Source of the DNA: Eledone cirrhosa
Taxonomy: Eukaryota
Length of the DNA: 64,000 nt
Assembly: GCA_964016885.1 (NCBI GenBank)
Contig: OZ024749.1
Location: 38,936,001 to 39,000,000 of the forward strand
Reading direction: 5' to 3'
A model generated the notes under the pieces. It saw only the letters and a program-made list of their open reading frames with translations, was not told the DNA's origin and did not search any database. Shown here one piece after another: positions 1,490 to 63,637 of this stretch; within the stretch, counting starts at the first letter, position 1, and each line of letters begins with the position of its first letter. The translations under genes were made by a program, and so were the position numbers.

Positions 1490-1560
1490 TATTTTATTAT
1501 GCGCATTTCAAAAACAAACATCATCATGCAATAATATTTGTGTTTTCATCAGATAAAACA
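1490..1560 (-). ncRNA. Type I hammerhead ribozyme with long helix II (family H1)
   Basis: Minus strand reads UUUUAU-CUGAUGA-[long hairpin ACAAAUAUUAUU/GAUGAUGUUUGU]-GAAA-UGCGCA-UA^AUAAAA. Helix I has 6-8 bp and helix III is the palindrome AUGCGCAU. Confidence 0.8.
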
Positions 1561-1795
1561 GGAGAACATGATATGAAGGCTAAAAAACACTTGTGGATAG
1601 TGCAGTTTTAAATCAACATATCAATAATCGTTTCGACCCCTGCTTATTAATTTTTCAGATTTGTTCGAATCCCCCCATCCCCACTTATTAATTTTGACTA
1701 TTCTATGTCCGGTAAGATTTCATTTCAAGTGATAATATGTTGATTTAAAACTGCACTATCCACAAGTGTTTTTTAGCCTTCATATCATGTTCTCC

Positions 1796-1866
1796 TGTTT
1801 TATCTGATGAAAACACAAATATTATTGCATGATGATGTTTGTTTTTGAAAAGCGCATAATAAAATA
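1796..1866 (+). ncRNA. Inverted copy of the H1 hammerhead (one helix III mismatch)
   Basis: Part of the ~170-bp inverted duplication 1452-1620 / 1735-1903; carries GAAAAGCGCAUA instead of GAAAUGCGCAUA. Confidence 0.65.
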
Positions 1867-2380
1867 CATGGAACTCCTTTAACCATCTTTTGATCTTATA
1901 TTATATATATATATATATATATATATATATATATATATATATATATATATATATATATTTCACGGATACACATTTAGCTAATTACGTTGACCGGTGACTA
2001 AGAAGTGACAAATTCAGAGAAACGATGTAACTAAAATCCTTGTTACGTCTGTTGATACAATCCTTACCTATTTTTCTAACTACGTTCGGATCTCGAATAA
2101 TCGTTTCGACCCCTGCTTATTAACTTTTCAGATTTGTTCGAATCCCCCCATCCCCACTTTTTAATTTTGACTATTCTATGTCCGGTAAGATTTCATTTCA
2201 AGTGATAACATTCCTGCAACAGTTAATTTTCTTTATACATAAAAAAAAAAACAACATTATATATTACAAAAACAAGTATATTACTAGAAATCCCATACGT
2301 TATAAAATAATTAGGATGGGTTGAGGTCTTAACGTTTTTCGAAATATTTACTTCTGCGTTCACAGATTGATTTTTTTTTG

Positions 2381-2431
2381 GGTTTCAGAAGATCCCGTTA
2401 AGGGTGAAAGCAGCGATTCTTTGCTTAAACT
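2381..2431 (+). ncRNA. Hammerhead-like motif with variant core CAGAAGA (family H2)
   Basis: GGUUU-CAGAAGA-UCCC-GUUAA-GGGU-GAAA-GCA...UGC-UU^AAACU. All three helices form, and the same variant recurs at 8955-9005. Confidence 0.6.
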
Positions 2432-2761
2432 TTAATCTGTTATTTTAATATATATATATATATATATGTATATATATATATATATATATATATATATATA
2501 TATATATATATTAAAATAACAGATTAAAGTTTAAGAAAAGAATCGCTGCTGTATTCTACCTTATATATGTATGTATTTATGTATGTGTGTATATATATAT
2601 ATATATATATATATATATATATATATATATATATATATAATTATATATTCGTGTACAGATATTTTTGCACACATAATAACAAAATATAAACAAACGTATT
2701 TATTTCACGAGGCTCGATAAGGATAAATATATATCAAATATATAAGAACCCTAGAGCAAAT

Positions 2762-2789
2762 CCCGAGCAACGCCGGGCCATTCTGCTAG
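2762..2789 (+). mobile_element. Helitron-like 3' terminus
   Basis: GC-rich hairpin CCCGAGC-AAC-GCCGGG about 8 nt upstream of CTAG followed by T. Confidence 0.55.
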
Positions 2790-3170
2790 TATAAACTAAA
2801 CGACTAAGTCTGGGTTTTTTTAATCATTAACGGAGACAACCTAGAAAAATTACCGATTTACACCCCATCCCGCTTATTCCCCTCCTGTTTATTCCAACTC
2901 CCCTATTATTTGGGACCCGGGACTACCTTCTTCTTTGCCCATTTATTCGTGCCAGGGTAGAAGCAATGGGGTCGGGGTTTTCATGCCTTCTAGCGGGTCC
3001 TGCCAAAAGCAACTGTCTCCAATTGATTCAACTGGATACCCAGCCTAGCTCATGGATGCTCGGGGGGTGGGGGCGGGGGGTCTACCTATGAGTCTCCCAA
3101 CAGCTATTTATATATATGTATATATATATATATATATATATATATATATATATATATATATATATATATA

Positions 3171-60302: not shown

Positions 60303-60545
60303 TTATATATTGGACAAGCAGGTTGCCATCTGGTTGACCAATTTGCAGCATACTTGAGGAATATACGACTTTGCAGGGATACCCCTATTGCACATCATTT
60401 CCATTCTCCAGGCCACTCCTCTGCACATGTCTCAGTTCTGGGCGCTCTATTACATCACGGATCACCAGCCTCATGCACCTAGACTGAGCAGAACTTGATT
60501 TTCCACCTTGGGTCCACTTTCCCAAATGAACTCAATTCCTCTCCA
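60303..60545 (+). pseudogene. Penelope-like (Neptune-type) GIY-YIG C-terminal fragment
   Basis: LYIGQAG..L..QF..Y.RNI....DTPIAHHF.SPGHS...VSVLG...*TEQNLIFHLGS.FPNELN. Confidence 0.75.
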
Positions 60546-61169
60546 CATTTTATCTATATTTATCCTTGTACACCCATGCTCTCTCATGCTTCTGTACACC
60601 TAACCACTGTCACCCTACCTTGTTTGCTGTCACATGTGCATGCACATTCAGCCTTCGAGTTTCTTATGGCTTCATTATGGTCAGAAACATACACCTTCAC
60701 AGATTTGTACAGACCAACAACAAACACACACACACACACATTCACACATACACACATACATATCCACTATAAATACATAAGGATCTTTTTCTTATTCAGA
60801 ATGATATAAGACACCTTTGATTGCAGCCTTTCCAAAGTTGGCCAACTGAAAATTCCAGCATCATAAATGCTCCTGTCAACAGTTTTCCTGAGAATGGCAA
60901 AATGAACAGACCTGTTTTTCCTCAAAGAAATGTTTTTCGTTTCTACCTCTGCTCATTTTCCTTTATCTTTGTATTTCTTCTTTATCTACCTCTGCTCATT
61001 TTCCTTTATCTTTGTATTTCTTCTTTCCTTTATCTTTCTATTTCTCATTAGCATGAAACTAATATATATGTTCATTGTACTGCATCTGTTATGCATTTTT
61101 GTTTACTTTTCACATATAGACTGTGATTTGCTGATGACAGGAGTTCATTACCAGATTGGAAAAGGTATG

Positions 61170-61775
61170 GTATCAGGAGCATACAAAATGGAGGTCAGCT
61201 CAGAAAAGAGCAATATTCTGGTTAATAGTCAAAATCAGAATATAGCAACCAATATTATGCTGGATGAAAGAAGGCTTGAAGAAGTGGACACTTTCAAGTA
61301 CCTTGGTTCCACTTCTGACATGGTAAAGCTGAATGTCATATGGAAAAGAAACAGTTTTCCAATGCACCTCAAATTGGTGACTTTGATCCTTTTGTATGGG
61401 TGTGAGAGTTGGACTTTCACAGCTGACATGGAATTAGGAATCTAGGCATTTGAACACAAGTGCTTCAAAAGGTTGCTACACATCCCATACACAGAGCACA
61501 AAACAAACAGCTTTGTCAGGCAGTAAATTAACAAATATAATGGCAGACAGGAACCACTCCTTGAGATGGTGAAAAGATGGAAGCTTGCCTGGTGGGGTCA
61601 TGTATCCTGCCCACATTCCTTGTCTAAAACCATCCTTCAGGAGGGTGAAGGAGAGGTAGACAAAGAAAATTCTGGTCCAACAACATCAAAGATCGTACTG
61701 GACTGGTCACATCACTGAGACACTTCTAAGCATGACAGTGTGCAGAGAGTAGTGGCACCCCAATGACAGGAACGT
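61170..61775 (+). pseudogene. RTE-like LINE 3' fragment
   Basis: Y.MEVS.EKS.ILV, LEEVDTFKYLGS, ILLYGCESWT, AFE.KC.KRLL.I.Y.EHKTN, KLAWWGHV motifs. Confidence 0.8.
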
Positions 61776-62624
61776 GATTGATATATATATATATATATAT
61801 ATATATATATATATATATATGTGTGTGTGTGAAAGCAGCGATTCTTTGCTTAAACTTTAATCTGTTATTTTAATAAATATTTGCTCTACGGTTCTTATAT
61901 ATTTGATATATATTTATCCTTATCGAGCCCTCTTTGGATTTTAGTCTTCAATTTTATTATTATTACTATATATATATACTCAAACTATATGGTCATATAA
62001 AAAGATCAACTCGTGGTGTGAGTAGGTTATGCCTGGAAGGAAGGTTGGCTGGTAAGAGAAGCAGAGATCGGCAGCCAAAACGATGGCTTGAAAATGTCAA
62101 CTTATGAACTGGACTTGATCTTTGCTCTTTGAACTCTGCTGCTGGTGATCGAACTTTGTGGAGAAAAATATCTCATGTTGGTGTGCAGTCTGCAACTGGT
62201 GGAGTTTAGCATCAGCATGATAAGAAGATGTTATAATATTGCCAGAAATGTATAATAAAACACTCATATATATATATCATCATCATCATCATCATCAACG
62301 TTTAACGTCCGTGTTCCACGCTTGCATGGGTTTGGACGGGGGTAGTCCCACTTGAGGCAAGAGTGATTGTCTTGCTCGCATAGGACTGTCTGGCAGGTTT
62401 TCTACAGTTGGATGCCCTTCCTAACACCAACCACATTTACAGTGTGGGTCTGGGAGGTTTTTACCGTGTTGCCTACACGGCCACATTACAGCGTGGACTG
62501 TGTGTTTTTTTGTCGTGACACCTACACGATCTCGTTTGTTTCGGCCTGGATGGCGCGGCACCAACATAACTTTACATGGAACGGGGTGGTGTGGATGGGG
62601 TGGGGGTTGGCGGGACGGGGTGTA

Positions 62625-62938
62625 GTTTGTTAGAGATGCCTACTGGCAAGGCGGGTCTTCTCTGTTACTGAGTACCGCCAAAGGTCACGGTCCAGTGACA
62701 TTGTCTTGGAGAGGTGTAAGTGTGTGAGGTCGGAGTTTATCAGCTCATCCCATGTTTTTCTAGGTCTGCCTATTCCGTGGCTACCGTCTATCTTTATTGC
62801 CCTGCACTTTGTAATACAGCTATCGACTTTCATGCGCATCACGTGTCCATACCAACGCAGCCTTCTCTCGAGTAAACAACATCTGATCCCTCTTATCTCT
62901 AATTTTTTCCTTAGTTCGTTTATGCTTTGCCGTTCACG
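62625..62938 (-). pseudogene. RTE-like LINE 3' end
   Basis: RRLRWYGHVMRM...GRPRKTW...DL...DRDLWR. Confidence 0.75.
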
Positions 62939-63600
62939 ATATATATATATATATATATATACAAAATTTAGTACAGCATCAACGAAGCCATGGTTGCAGC
63001 CAAGCTAACGAATGCAGTTTCGGTGTGCAGCTAAGCACTCAAAAGGGTATATAACCCTAGAGTTATAACATTACGTTTAGACAGCTTTGCAAAATGAAGA
63101 CAGCGACCGATAGAAGGGCCACAGTGACCATAGCCACGAAAAAGACTGAAGTCAGGAAAAATATATATATATGTATATATACACACATATATGTGACCCC
63201 GGGACGACCAGTAGTACTGTCAGTAGGCATTCAAACTGCCAGAAGTTCATCTCAATGGCTGAGGTCCTTAGAGTTATATGTCTTTCGTTTGACTTTTGAT
63301 TTTCAAAGAACGTTTTTCAAGGTTTCCCCTTCAAAAAAAAATTTTTCATTTCACTTTGTTTTTGTTAATTGTTTTTTTGTTAATTTTGTTAATTTTATTT
63401 TATATATATATATATATCTCCATATATCCATATATATATATATATATATATATATATATATATATATATATATATATATATATATATATATATATATATA
63501 TATATATATATAATGGAAAAATTTGAACAGGAACAAAACAGAGAAGCAGTACAACGAATGTTTATTAATTTCACGCTCTGGAGAGTGGGGTGTTGGTGGG

Positions 63601-63637
63601 GAACGACGTTTCGGGCATAAGCCCTTCCTCGGGTGAA
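63601..63637 (-). ncRNA. Minimal hammerhead with CCGAGGA core in a PLE-like 3' end (family H11)
   Basis: AC-CCGAGGA-A-GGGC-UUAU-GCCC-GAAACGUC^GU; palindromic ACGU helix III, weak helix I. Confidence 0.55.

Follow-up and report, generated by a model that had tools for sequence, protein, structure and literature searches.

Type I hammerhead ribozymes are known from several kinds of animal retroelements, and the closest described systems are the C-terminal EN+ Penelope-like elements (PLEs) of the Hydra clade, for example Hydra-1_Obim (Craig et al., 2021, PMC8557442), the minimal hammerheads of metazoan PLEs (Cervera and de la Pena, 2014, PMC4209133), the animal non-LTR retrozymes (Cervera and de la Pena, 2020, PMC7229834; Li et al., 2026, bioRxiv 10.64898/2026.07.22.740005), Poseidon of Anolis, studied in vitro (Frangieh et al., 2024, PMC11167929), and the Sm-alpha hammerhead SINEs of Schistosoma, with ~38,500 candidates (Copeland et al., 2009, PMC2770079). 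Three questions are raised by the consulted parts of this literature: the origin of PLE tails and inverted structures, the role of the hammerhead, and the enzyme that moves animal retrozymes. A search of the literature found no hammerhead census for cephalopods or molluscs; the giant squid paper gives 235 Rfam hits, and larger counts or the same variants may be given in Lunse et al. (2017). Since the link between hammerheads and PLEs is already published, the surprise in what follows lies in scale and regularity and not in kind; what is new is the census and the assignment of hammerhead families to coding elements.

The window, i.e., the whole stretch of 64,000 nucleotides analysed here from Eledone cirrhosa (contig OZ024749.1), carries 22 type I hammerhead motifs in 18 insertions belonging to 12–13 families. 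Our main reading, to which we give a probability of about 0.8, is that these motifs are PLE-end hammerheads, and that their abundance is due to repeated insertion into TA repeats coupled with an early stop of copying. The insertions and protein relics are the following (+ and – denote the strands).

1366..1909, inverted pair of family E; hammerhead 1490–1560 in the long-ended arm (–), a second near 1796 with a stem III mismatch in the short-ended arm (+)
2293..2447 (+), short end of family G; hammerhead 2378–2434, A at core position 4 (A4)
3721..3909, family B inverted pair, short and long end; hammerhead 3734–3784 (–)
4972..5054 (+), family C tail alone; conserved hairpin at 4987
8394..8650 (–), family A end, Neptune-type PLE by its motifs; minimal hammerhead 8477–8512
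8664..8847, family B inverted pair; core degenerate
8941..9140, family G inverted pair; A4 core, minus arm
12081..12152 (–), family J hammerhead; core position 4 is C (C4)
13052..13096 (–), family H canonical type I hammerhead; relatives elsewhere pass the RF00163 cut-off
25913..26079 (–), family A end; hammerhead 25996–26031
26098..26214 (–), family B long arm whose truncation within the hammerhead leaves half a ribozyme
26265..26577, family F inverted pair; hammerhead 26465–26536 (+)
28065..28251, family B inverted pair; hammerhead 28187–28237 (+)
28758..28959, older family C inverted pair; stem II cut in both arms
30332..30428 (–), hammerhead of family Q with a C4 core and a long stem II
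31000..31338, older inverted pair of family C, accompanied by a partial tandem piece; the cut lies within stem II
31465..32534, young insertion of family C, the long-ended arm (–) measuring 435 bp and the short-ended arm (+) 636 bp; U3-A8 hammerheads at 31563–31656 and 32426–32519
32638..33645, family D retrozyme; 457-bp non-coding unit in tandem (–) and inverted short arm (+), hammerheads 32816–32904, 33273–33361 and 33480–33568
33746..33977, family N inverted pair; joint close to the predicted cut site, core gone
37078..37437 (+), family A end; mutated core at 37323
37489..37666 (+), family I; hammerhead 37512–37552
43459..43719 (–), family A end; hammerhead 43542–43577
43763..43921, family K tail that includes a small inversion; its hairpin lies at 43848
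46249..46400 (–), family J-related; hammerhead 46281–46347
46648..46823 (–), family K; hammerhead 46691–46757
46847..47265, family F inverted pair; hammerheads 46968–47040 (–) and 47159–47231 (+)
48307..48529 (–), family A end; hammerhead 48391–48424
48842..49629 (–), broken Hydra-clade PLE C-terminus; CxCx5C linker and GIY-YIG endonuclease
~57482..58170 (+), N-terminus of a broken Hydra-clade PLE, reaching into the first part of the reverse transcriptase; matched by the family C protein in tblastn (E 4e-9)
~60237..60552 (+), broken C-terminus with GIY-YIG, family A (Neptune) type

The count of 22 was obtained with a type I descriptor (core, three helices and NUH cut site) and compares with a mean of 0.3 and a maximum of 2 in 60 local dinucleotide shuffles, in agreement with the initial annotation, which had claimed more than 20 motifs in about 11 families and had proposed the shuffle control. 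The canonical core alone gives 15 motifs against 0.23 (100 shuffles) and strict settings 8 against 0 (100 shuffles), while earlier, over-strict descriptors had matched 4 and 7 times. As the descriptors were tuned on the window, the independent test is that of 59 random genome stretches, which yielded 82 motifs against 2–7 in 5 shuffles. The type I order with CUGANGA and GAAA core and NUH cut site is found in 17 canonical and 5 variant cores, the latter with A4 at 2386, C4 at 12145 and 30420, and U3-A8 at 31651 and 32431; no enrichment of G3-C8, A3-U8 or U3-G8 cores emerged from the descriptor search. Of 18 motif positions listed in the annotation, 17 satisfy the descriptor, the exception being 1796, the inverted twin of 1490, which has a mismatch in stem III. 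The modules, described as 100–450 bp long and bounded by (TA)n, are indeed inserted in (TA)n, but some are longer (1,069 and 1,007 bp); of the 17 motifs examined, 15 are followed within 21–187 nt of their 3′ end by a microsatellite, with less regularity on the 5′ side.

Pairing is kept although helix sequences differ, as had been claimed. Among 27 BLAST-collected copies of family F, 96.1% of cells are paired vs. 92.8% after shuffling and 38–52% in slid-register controls, and 26 cells are compensatory vs. 10.5 (0 of 500 shuffles on three of five measures). In most families stem III is self-complementary, and the core of family C carries a U3-A8 pair. The proposed Rfam check gave no window match to RF00163 at gathering score, the family H motif reaching 31.7 bits for a cut-off of 34 (E 2.7e-6); genome-wide, 18 of 74 scored candidates reach that score, and the six passers fetched are all family H. 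The Rfam E-value list consists mostly of microRNA models matching microsatellites, and the repeat search was likewise swamped. As folds, the hammerhead motifs of the window are confirmed; their cleavage is predicted from the fold.

Families A, C, E, F and G, which make up 11 of the 22 motifs, are continuous with PLE ORFs in longer genomic copies among the fetched loci (E in the single locus L173; F in L172; G in L059, L103 and L179; A in L187 and L192–L194), bearing out the annotated tie between type I hammerheads and PLEs. By motifs and homologous frames, four of them are assigned to the Hydra clade and one, family A, to the Neptune type. Family C occurs in tandem 3,531-bp units that differ by a single base, with an intact 717-aa ORF (motifs RWR, DKT, CxCx5C, YIG, CxxC and CxH) and near-identical copies genome-wide; the young insertion at 31465..32534 is 99.7% identical to this intact Hydra-clade unit. 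Read from the family C frame, the predicted architecture is that of the Hydra clade, i.e., a single ORF with reverse transcriptase followed by a C-terminal GIY-YIG and the signature motifs. Homologous broken frames are present in E, F and G, family F forming in L172 a hammerhead-ORF-hammerhead unit of 3,938 bp; a similarity to Hydra-1_Obim is visible by eye. Their structure agrees too, with tandem or partial-tandem units, an inverted truncated copy, a one-sided tail and (TA)n targets. Family A has, in L187, L193 and L210, a CSRSRCNIC linker, YIGQTG and GLN, which match the Neptune CX2-5CxxC linker and canonical GIY-YIG and suggest a Neptune-type PLE. The three PLE protein relics annotated at 48.8–49.7, 57.5–58.3 and 60.3 kb were all recovered. 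The first scores a Pfam GIY-YIG E of 0.018, which falls short of the cut-off, and the last was assigned by eye from its six-frame translation against L187 and L193; an 861-aa Hydra-type frame also went unrecognised by Pfam. In 20 loci related to the 48.8-kb relic, none of the 16 window modules tested could be linked directly to the 3′ regions, and these loci have a hammerhead family R of their own, up to ~1 kb downstream.

An alternative is that the families are for the most part short and non-autonomous, either SINE-like or retrozymes, and depend on a few PLE proteins to be moved in trans. It holds for family D, the only window family demonstrated to be non-autonomous, whose three motifs lie in a young 457-bp non-coding unit repeated in tandem, with a hammerhead in each unit, at dispersed loci (up to 7 units in a fetched locus, the longest frame that starts with Met having 35 aa). 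BLAST revealed no autonomous partner of D in the fetched loci, and D has no match listed in RNA data. Most copies are short and non-coding, a 482-bp family I array is present in L077, arrays of 311 bp are among the listed genome patterns, and families B, H, I, J, K and Q (8 of the 22 motifs), for which no ORF is demonstrated, could be non-autonomous. However, A, C, E, F and G reach ORFs in their longer copies and have ragged 5′ but fixed 3′ ends; because they run into ORFs, their short modules are 5′-truncated ends of coding PLEs, and retrozyme status was rejected for these five. The annotated idea of many non-autonomous elements mobilised by PLE proteins therefore stands for family D and fails for these five families, and as a general account it is unlikely.

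A further regularity lies in the ends themselves. Hydra-type copies have two fixed 3′ end sites per family, 80–106 nt apart, and inverted insertions join a long and a short end in 120 of 122 cases, short with short never occurring; the expectation is ~49% (from 47 long and 37 short single ends), and the rule holds in 72 of 74 once two families are dropped for which the query was biased towards long arms. The longer arm may be the one or the other, and in family D both may contain several tandem units. Just past the short end a covarying hairpin is found in 15 families, a 15/15 result that is partly circular since the families were first picked by pairing; in the window such tail hairpins number 14 vs. 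0.96 in shuffles. A second hairpin past the long end is seen in 3 of 5 families checked, with no match in G and E, and G has no TA at its long end. In family C the putative start sites precede the ORF, at 93 nt from the ATG. As family A has one end and 1 inversion in 25 copies, the two-end model is limited to the Hydra type.

It might be argued that the inverted pairs are secondary, arising from fold-back after insertion or from faulty assembly, and say nothing on copying. Palindromes are unstable, and many joints do lie inside the self-complementary stem II: 44 of 78 family C copies are inverted, with joints mostly at –46 to –29. Yet fold-back predicts random or same ends, whereas one of each fixed end is nearly always found, either arm may be longer and family D has tandem units in both; moreover, an independent run has many different joints of this kind (221 listed in all, with short sides of 21–30 nt in the 15 shown). 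A secondary origin is thus very improbable, and the two-ended footprint likely records how the elements begin copying. A spike of 5′ truncation at the ribozyme cut site was sought in the 5′-end counts and not found, with 14 ends no more than 10 nt away from it, compared with 86 at –45 to –26 (counts that include overlapping loci and ignore positive-side peaks for three references with flanking microsatellite); the palindromes 33746–33977 and 3174–3282, joined at or near the predicted site, run counter to this avoidance. Since truncation points avoid the cut site, the template was probably uncut or circular.

Genome-wide, the sample gives ~1 motif per 9 kb, i.e., ~300,000 in 3.0 Gb as a sampling estimate and ~160,000 by direct counts, in more than 30 clusters that are mostly PLE ends. 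The window is ~2.5 times richer than the genome sample (P ~0.01); the very large complement foreseen in the initial annotation is upheld, but its rate of one motif per 3 kb is about three times too high. Exact 30-mer copies of family G number 18,439, and the 48.8-kb endonuclease relic has 46,259 first-look candidates. That the hammerheads form a regulatory complement selected by the host, as their very large number and the many intact cores might suggest, is scarcely credible, given that single copies bear scattered mutations in core and stems, that the core has lost its 5′ half in 71 of 78 family C copies, and that every resolved family is a transposon end.

For the PLE-end hammerheads the following course can be proposed. 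The PLE protein would cut both strands of a TA repeat, and the two DNA ends would prime on the element RNA at two sites. Each site would precede a bulged hairpin by a few bases and would mostly coincide with a TA of the RNA. Both cDNAs would then run back through the hammerhead, usually halting within a few hundred bases, and be joined head to head or to the flank. The template would be an uncut multimeric RNA or a re-ligated circle, because copies cross the cut site without piling up there. The hammerhead may act earlier, mostly as a dimer, cutting multimers into circularisable units, and the 457-bp family D may borrow the PLE machinery in trans; most inserted copies would be dead and the fold selected in source elements alone. 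In its boldest form, which we hold only tentatively, at a little under even chances, this is the largest hammerhead complement on record (~300,000, >30 families), produced by a dimeric protein of active Hydra-clade PLEs that uses both ends of a single DNA break to start at two hairpin-marked sites of one RNA, uncut or circular. If so, a single double-start rule would account for the tail of PLEs, for the inverted structure and for the way animal retrozymes spread; family C, together with its passenger D, would be a ready test system. The way to direct assays is opened by the many natural products, by the intact young element and by a passenger that is young, non-coding and marked by the same footprint. 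The genome is also a very large source of hammerhead variants found in nature (U3-A8, A4, C4, long stems), mostly missed by curated Rfam thresholds.

For a Schistosoma genome of ~0.4 Gb, the density of Sm-alpha would be comparable to that found here. Sm-alpha is one SINE-like family (Copeland et al., 2009), whereas here there are more than 30 clusters, mostly PLE ends. Like the metazoan PLE hammerheads, those of Eledone fall into many families per genome, mostly as single truncated copies, with opposite-strand pairs 100–700 bp apart, and share the palindromic stem III, the extra base after A9 and the U3-A8 variant; they differ, as far as the consulted text goes, in number (~300,000 vs. ~2,000 to 9,000 per genome), in the long stems II and III of several families and in one abundant A4 family (Cervera and de la Pena, 2014).

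With the Hydra-1_Obim clade they have in common the RWK-like, DKT, CxCx5C, CxxC and CxH motifs, the hammerhead near the end, the (TA)n targets, the tandem and inverted copies and the one-end tail (Craig et al., 2021). Tails are 80–106 nt here vs. 30–40 in that clade, and the consulted part of the same paper describes one octopus family with 4 copies, one end site and no pLTR, compared with many families, one of them intact and young, in Eledone; the strict long-and-short rule and the tail hairpin were found here and not in that part of the paper. Poseidon, in the portion of the study consulted, offers an in vitro precedent for two internal start sites defining the tail, AT-rich targets, cutting of both strands and an uncut RNA template (Frangieh et al., 2024). 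It belongs to a different clade, and its start sites lie in the ORF, in an AC-rich stem-loop, while those proposed here precede bulged hairpins upstream of the ORF.

Finally, family D resembles the animal retrozymes, as far as the published accounts consulted describe them, in its 457-bp non-coding tandem with one type I hammerhead, its dispersed arrays and its predicted stable circular fold (Cervera and de la Pena, 2020; Li et al., 2026). Known from DNA alone, it departs from the published retrozymes in its two fixed ends, inverted arms, TA targets and tail hairpin. As family D bears the insertion footprint of a PLE, the proposal that PLEs drive retrozymes gains mechanistic evidence.

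The window is AT-rich and packed with microsatellites, and a descriptor search finds in it 15 type I hammerheads with a canonical core, against 0.23 in 100 local shuffles. With a wider descriptor, which admits two stem II mismatches and the core variants U3-A8, A4 and C4 (named by core position and base) besides the canonical core, 22 motifs are found, representing 18 insertions of 12-13 families, as compared with 0.3 (maximum 2) in 60 shuffles of the window. The excess over shuffled sequence anticipated in the initial annotation is thus borne out, and 17 of the 18 hammerhead positions listed there conform to the type I descriptor. 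Numerous additional modules carry the hammerhead 3' half alone, or the tail alone. Helix covariation, also expected, was found in family F (letters denote our hammerhead-bearing repeat families), in which compensatory change maintains the stems of 27 distinct copies picked for diversity from 58 found by BLAST: 96.1% of cells are paired and 26 cells are changed on both sides, against 10.5 in shuffles, with 0 of 500 shuffles reaching the observed values, while two other measures on these 27 copies did not rise above shuffles. Stem III is self-complementary in most families, a build tied to cleavage as a dimer in the literature (PMC4209133). The usual base at core position 4 in family G is A (e.g., window:2386-2415), and since an exact 30-mer of this family has 18,439 whole-genome matches (control, 0), family G, as judged from sequence, has become abundant while carrying a non-canonical core.

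Features of the window lacking a scorable core or unrelated to hammerheads
16-399 (-), profilin uninterrupted reading frame (Pfam PF00235, E 5e-14)
3174-3282, palindrome with its centre close to a predicted cut site, without scorable core
28514-28742, tail with hairpin at 28568, without scorable core
30515-30739, degenerate hammerhead at 30640, without scorable core
17166-17355 and some 20 further sites, highly abundant SINE-like repeat, about 190 bp long and bearing a tRNA-like box
7505-8036, 8131-8360, 10031-11132, 25464-25883, 43042-43432, 61200-61433 and 62630-63004, other LINE-like element fragments
44412-44831 (+) and 55387-55734 (+), frames without Pfam match, presumably resembling the restriction-like endonuclease terminus of R2/CRE-type LINEs
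55718-57004, array of 33 copies of 39 bp, after the frame at 55387-55734
14133-14454, minisatellite, 20-bp units
21848-22906, minisatellite, 40/61/101-bp units
37714-40522, minisatellite, 80/156-bp units

Core-like heptamers at 28 and 149, within the profilin frame, were rejected as chance matches. The SINE-like repeat gives 22 BLAST pieces in the window and 136 in a 590-kb sample, several copies lie in inverted or nested pairs (e.g., window:15487-15949), and ARAGORN detects no tRNA in it.

The 3' ends of module copies are fixed, their 5' ends ragged, and upstream extension of modules A, C, E, F and G, which together supply 11 of the 22 window motifs, reaches reading frames of Penelope-like elements (PLEs). 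The suggestion of many non-autonomous elements accordingly fails for these families, which are ends of coding elements, stands for family D, and may hold for B, H, I, J, K and Q. The best 40 genomic matches of the 352-bp family C arm are all 100% identical, and its tandem units of 3,531 bp, with one base differing, bear an unbroken 717-aa frame with Hydra-clade motifs; its core, UUGAGAA (U3-A8), is invisible to a CUGANGA search and corresponds to a covariant described in Schistosoma (PMC4209133). At other genomic loci, family F forms a hammerhead-ORF-hammerhead arrangement spanning 3,938 bp (L172), family E has the order tail, ORF, hammerhead (L173), and the family G ORF lies 0.9-1 kb upstream (L059, L103) or directly downstream (L179); 0.4-0.65 kb upstream of family A modules lie a linker and an endonuclease of Neptune type. 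PLE coding remnants make up about 2% of a random sample. The closest published element family found is from Octopus bimaculoides.

The family D unit, of 457 bp, has no Met-started frame longer than 35 aa, and its copies, mostly 98-100% identical, occur on many chromosomes, frequently with inverted arms; a single fetched locus contains as many as seven units in array. Its predicted circular fold is of -117.3 kcal/mol, against -89.7 +/- 5.1 in shuffles. By sequence, family D fits the definition of a non-LTR retrozyme. Other retrozyme-like arrays were seen at L077:456-3366 (seven units of about 482 bp) and, two-armed with 311-bp units, at G000:C1:1239859-1244282.

Hydra-type families have two fixed 3' end sites, long and short, spaced by 80 (C), 91 (F), 93 (G) and 106 nt (D), and in C, D and F the element itself continues with TA or AT, as in the target, G being the exception. 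Among inverted insertions (two opposite-strand arms) of 11 families, 120 of 122 join a long to a short end, 2 are long+long and none short+short; without B and F, whose queries are biased toward long arms, 72 of 74 remain, where chance would give about half, and family D has 6 of 6. In 15 families the short end is followed, a few bases on, by a bulged hairpin whose closing pairs are ACTC/GAGT, GCTC/GAGC or GTTC/GAAC (a doubtful 16th match was discarded), with 14 in the window against 0.96 in shuffles; a second one, past the long end, is present in C and F, weaker in D, and was sought in G and E, where none was found. In a family E inverted pair, the 115-bp spacer (window:1623-1738) matches flanking DNA 470 bp off (window:2096-2211) at 97% identity, and may be a templated insertion made where the arms join.

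Were the template a linear unit released by the hammerhead, synthesis begun at the short end would run out of template after 20-85 nt. Most copies extend across the predicted cut site, and few 5' ends fall near it (14 no more than 10 nt away, compared with 86 at -45 to -26, counts that include overlapping loci), which fits an uncut or circular template and argues against run-off of a cut linear unit; two window palindromes joined near the predicted cut site are exceptions. Of 78 family C copies, 71 are without the 5' half of the core, chiefly via inverted junctions in stem II, and in an independent run many junctions fell at the same places. A circular or multimeric template would also yield the tandem 3.5-kb and 457-bp units. 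The template proposed here parallels the Anolis system, in which hammerhead mutants are reported to be without effect on insertion and cleavage to be protein-dependent (Frangieh 2024, PMC11167929).

The assembly comprises 3.0 Gb in 1,796 contigs, from which a random sample of 589,600 bases was drawn as 59 10-kb stretches, placed at round coordinates across 22 contigs. With the wide descriptor, it holds 82 motifs, against 2-7 in shuffles, which scales to 390,000 genome-wide (bootstrap 260,000-530,000). A core pattern with partial family coverage has 185,499 whole-genome matches (reversed control, 43,971) and 42 in the sample against 36.5 expected, 28 of them passing the structure test, while the family G 30-mer occurs 8 times in the sample against 3.6 expected, so that the sample is high for this family. 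Calibration brings the estimate to about 300,000-350,000 motifs, of which about 160,000 are directly counted; the very large complement foreseen is therefore upheld, at a density of one per 9 kb rather than one per ~3 kb. Hits in all fetched DNA form 62 clusters, 34 with at least two members, a few by chance.

Hammerheads in PLE ends, their abundance as single truncated copies and as pairs on opposite strands, one-sided tails, Hydra elements targeting (TA)n and a PLE origin for retrozymes are already in print. To these are added a calibrated hammerhead census, the assignment on sequence grounds of most of families A, C, D, E, F and G to the ends of coding elements, a young, intact Hydra element whose core is U3-A8, and the lack of run-off at the predicted cut site. 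The elements are of known kinds and their scale is unusual: published counts are about 5,000 for the mussel and 120,000 for the axolotl, 2,000-9,000 motifs of the minimal type for Schistosoma, coelacanth and Xenopus (PMC4209133) and about 38,500 for Schistosoma mansoni (Copeland 2009, PMC2770079). The absolute number here tops all of these, and Schistosoma probably has a similar density, taking its genome as about 0.4 Gb.
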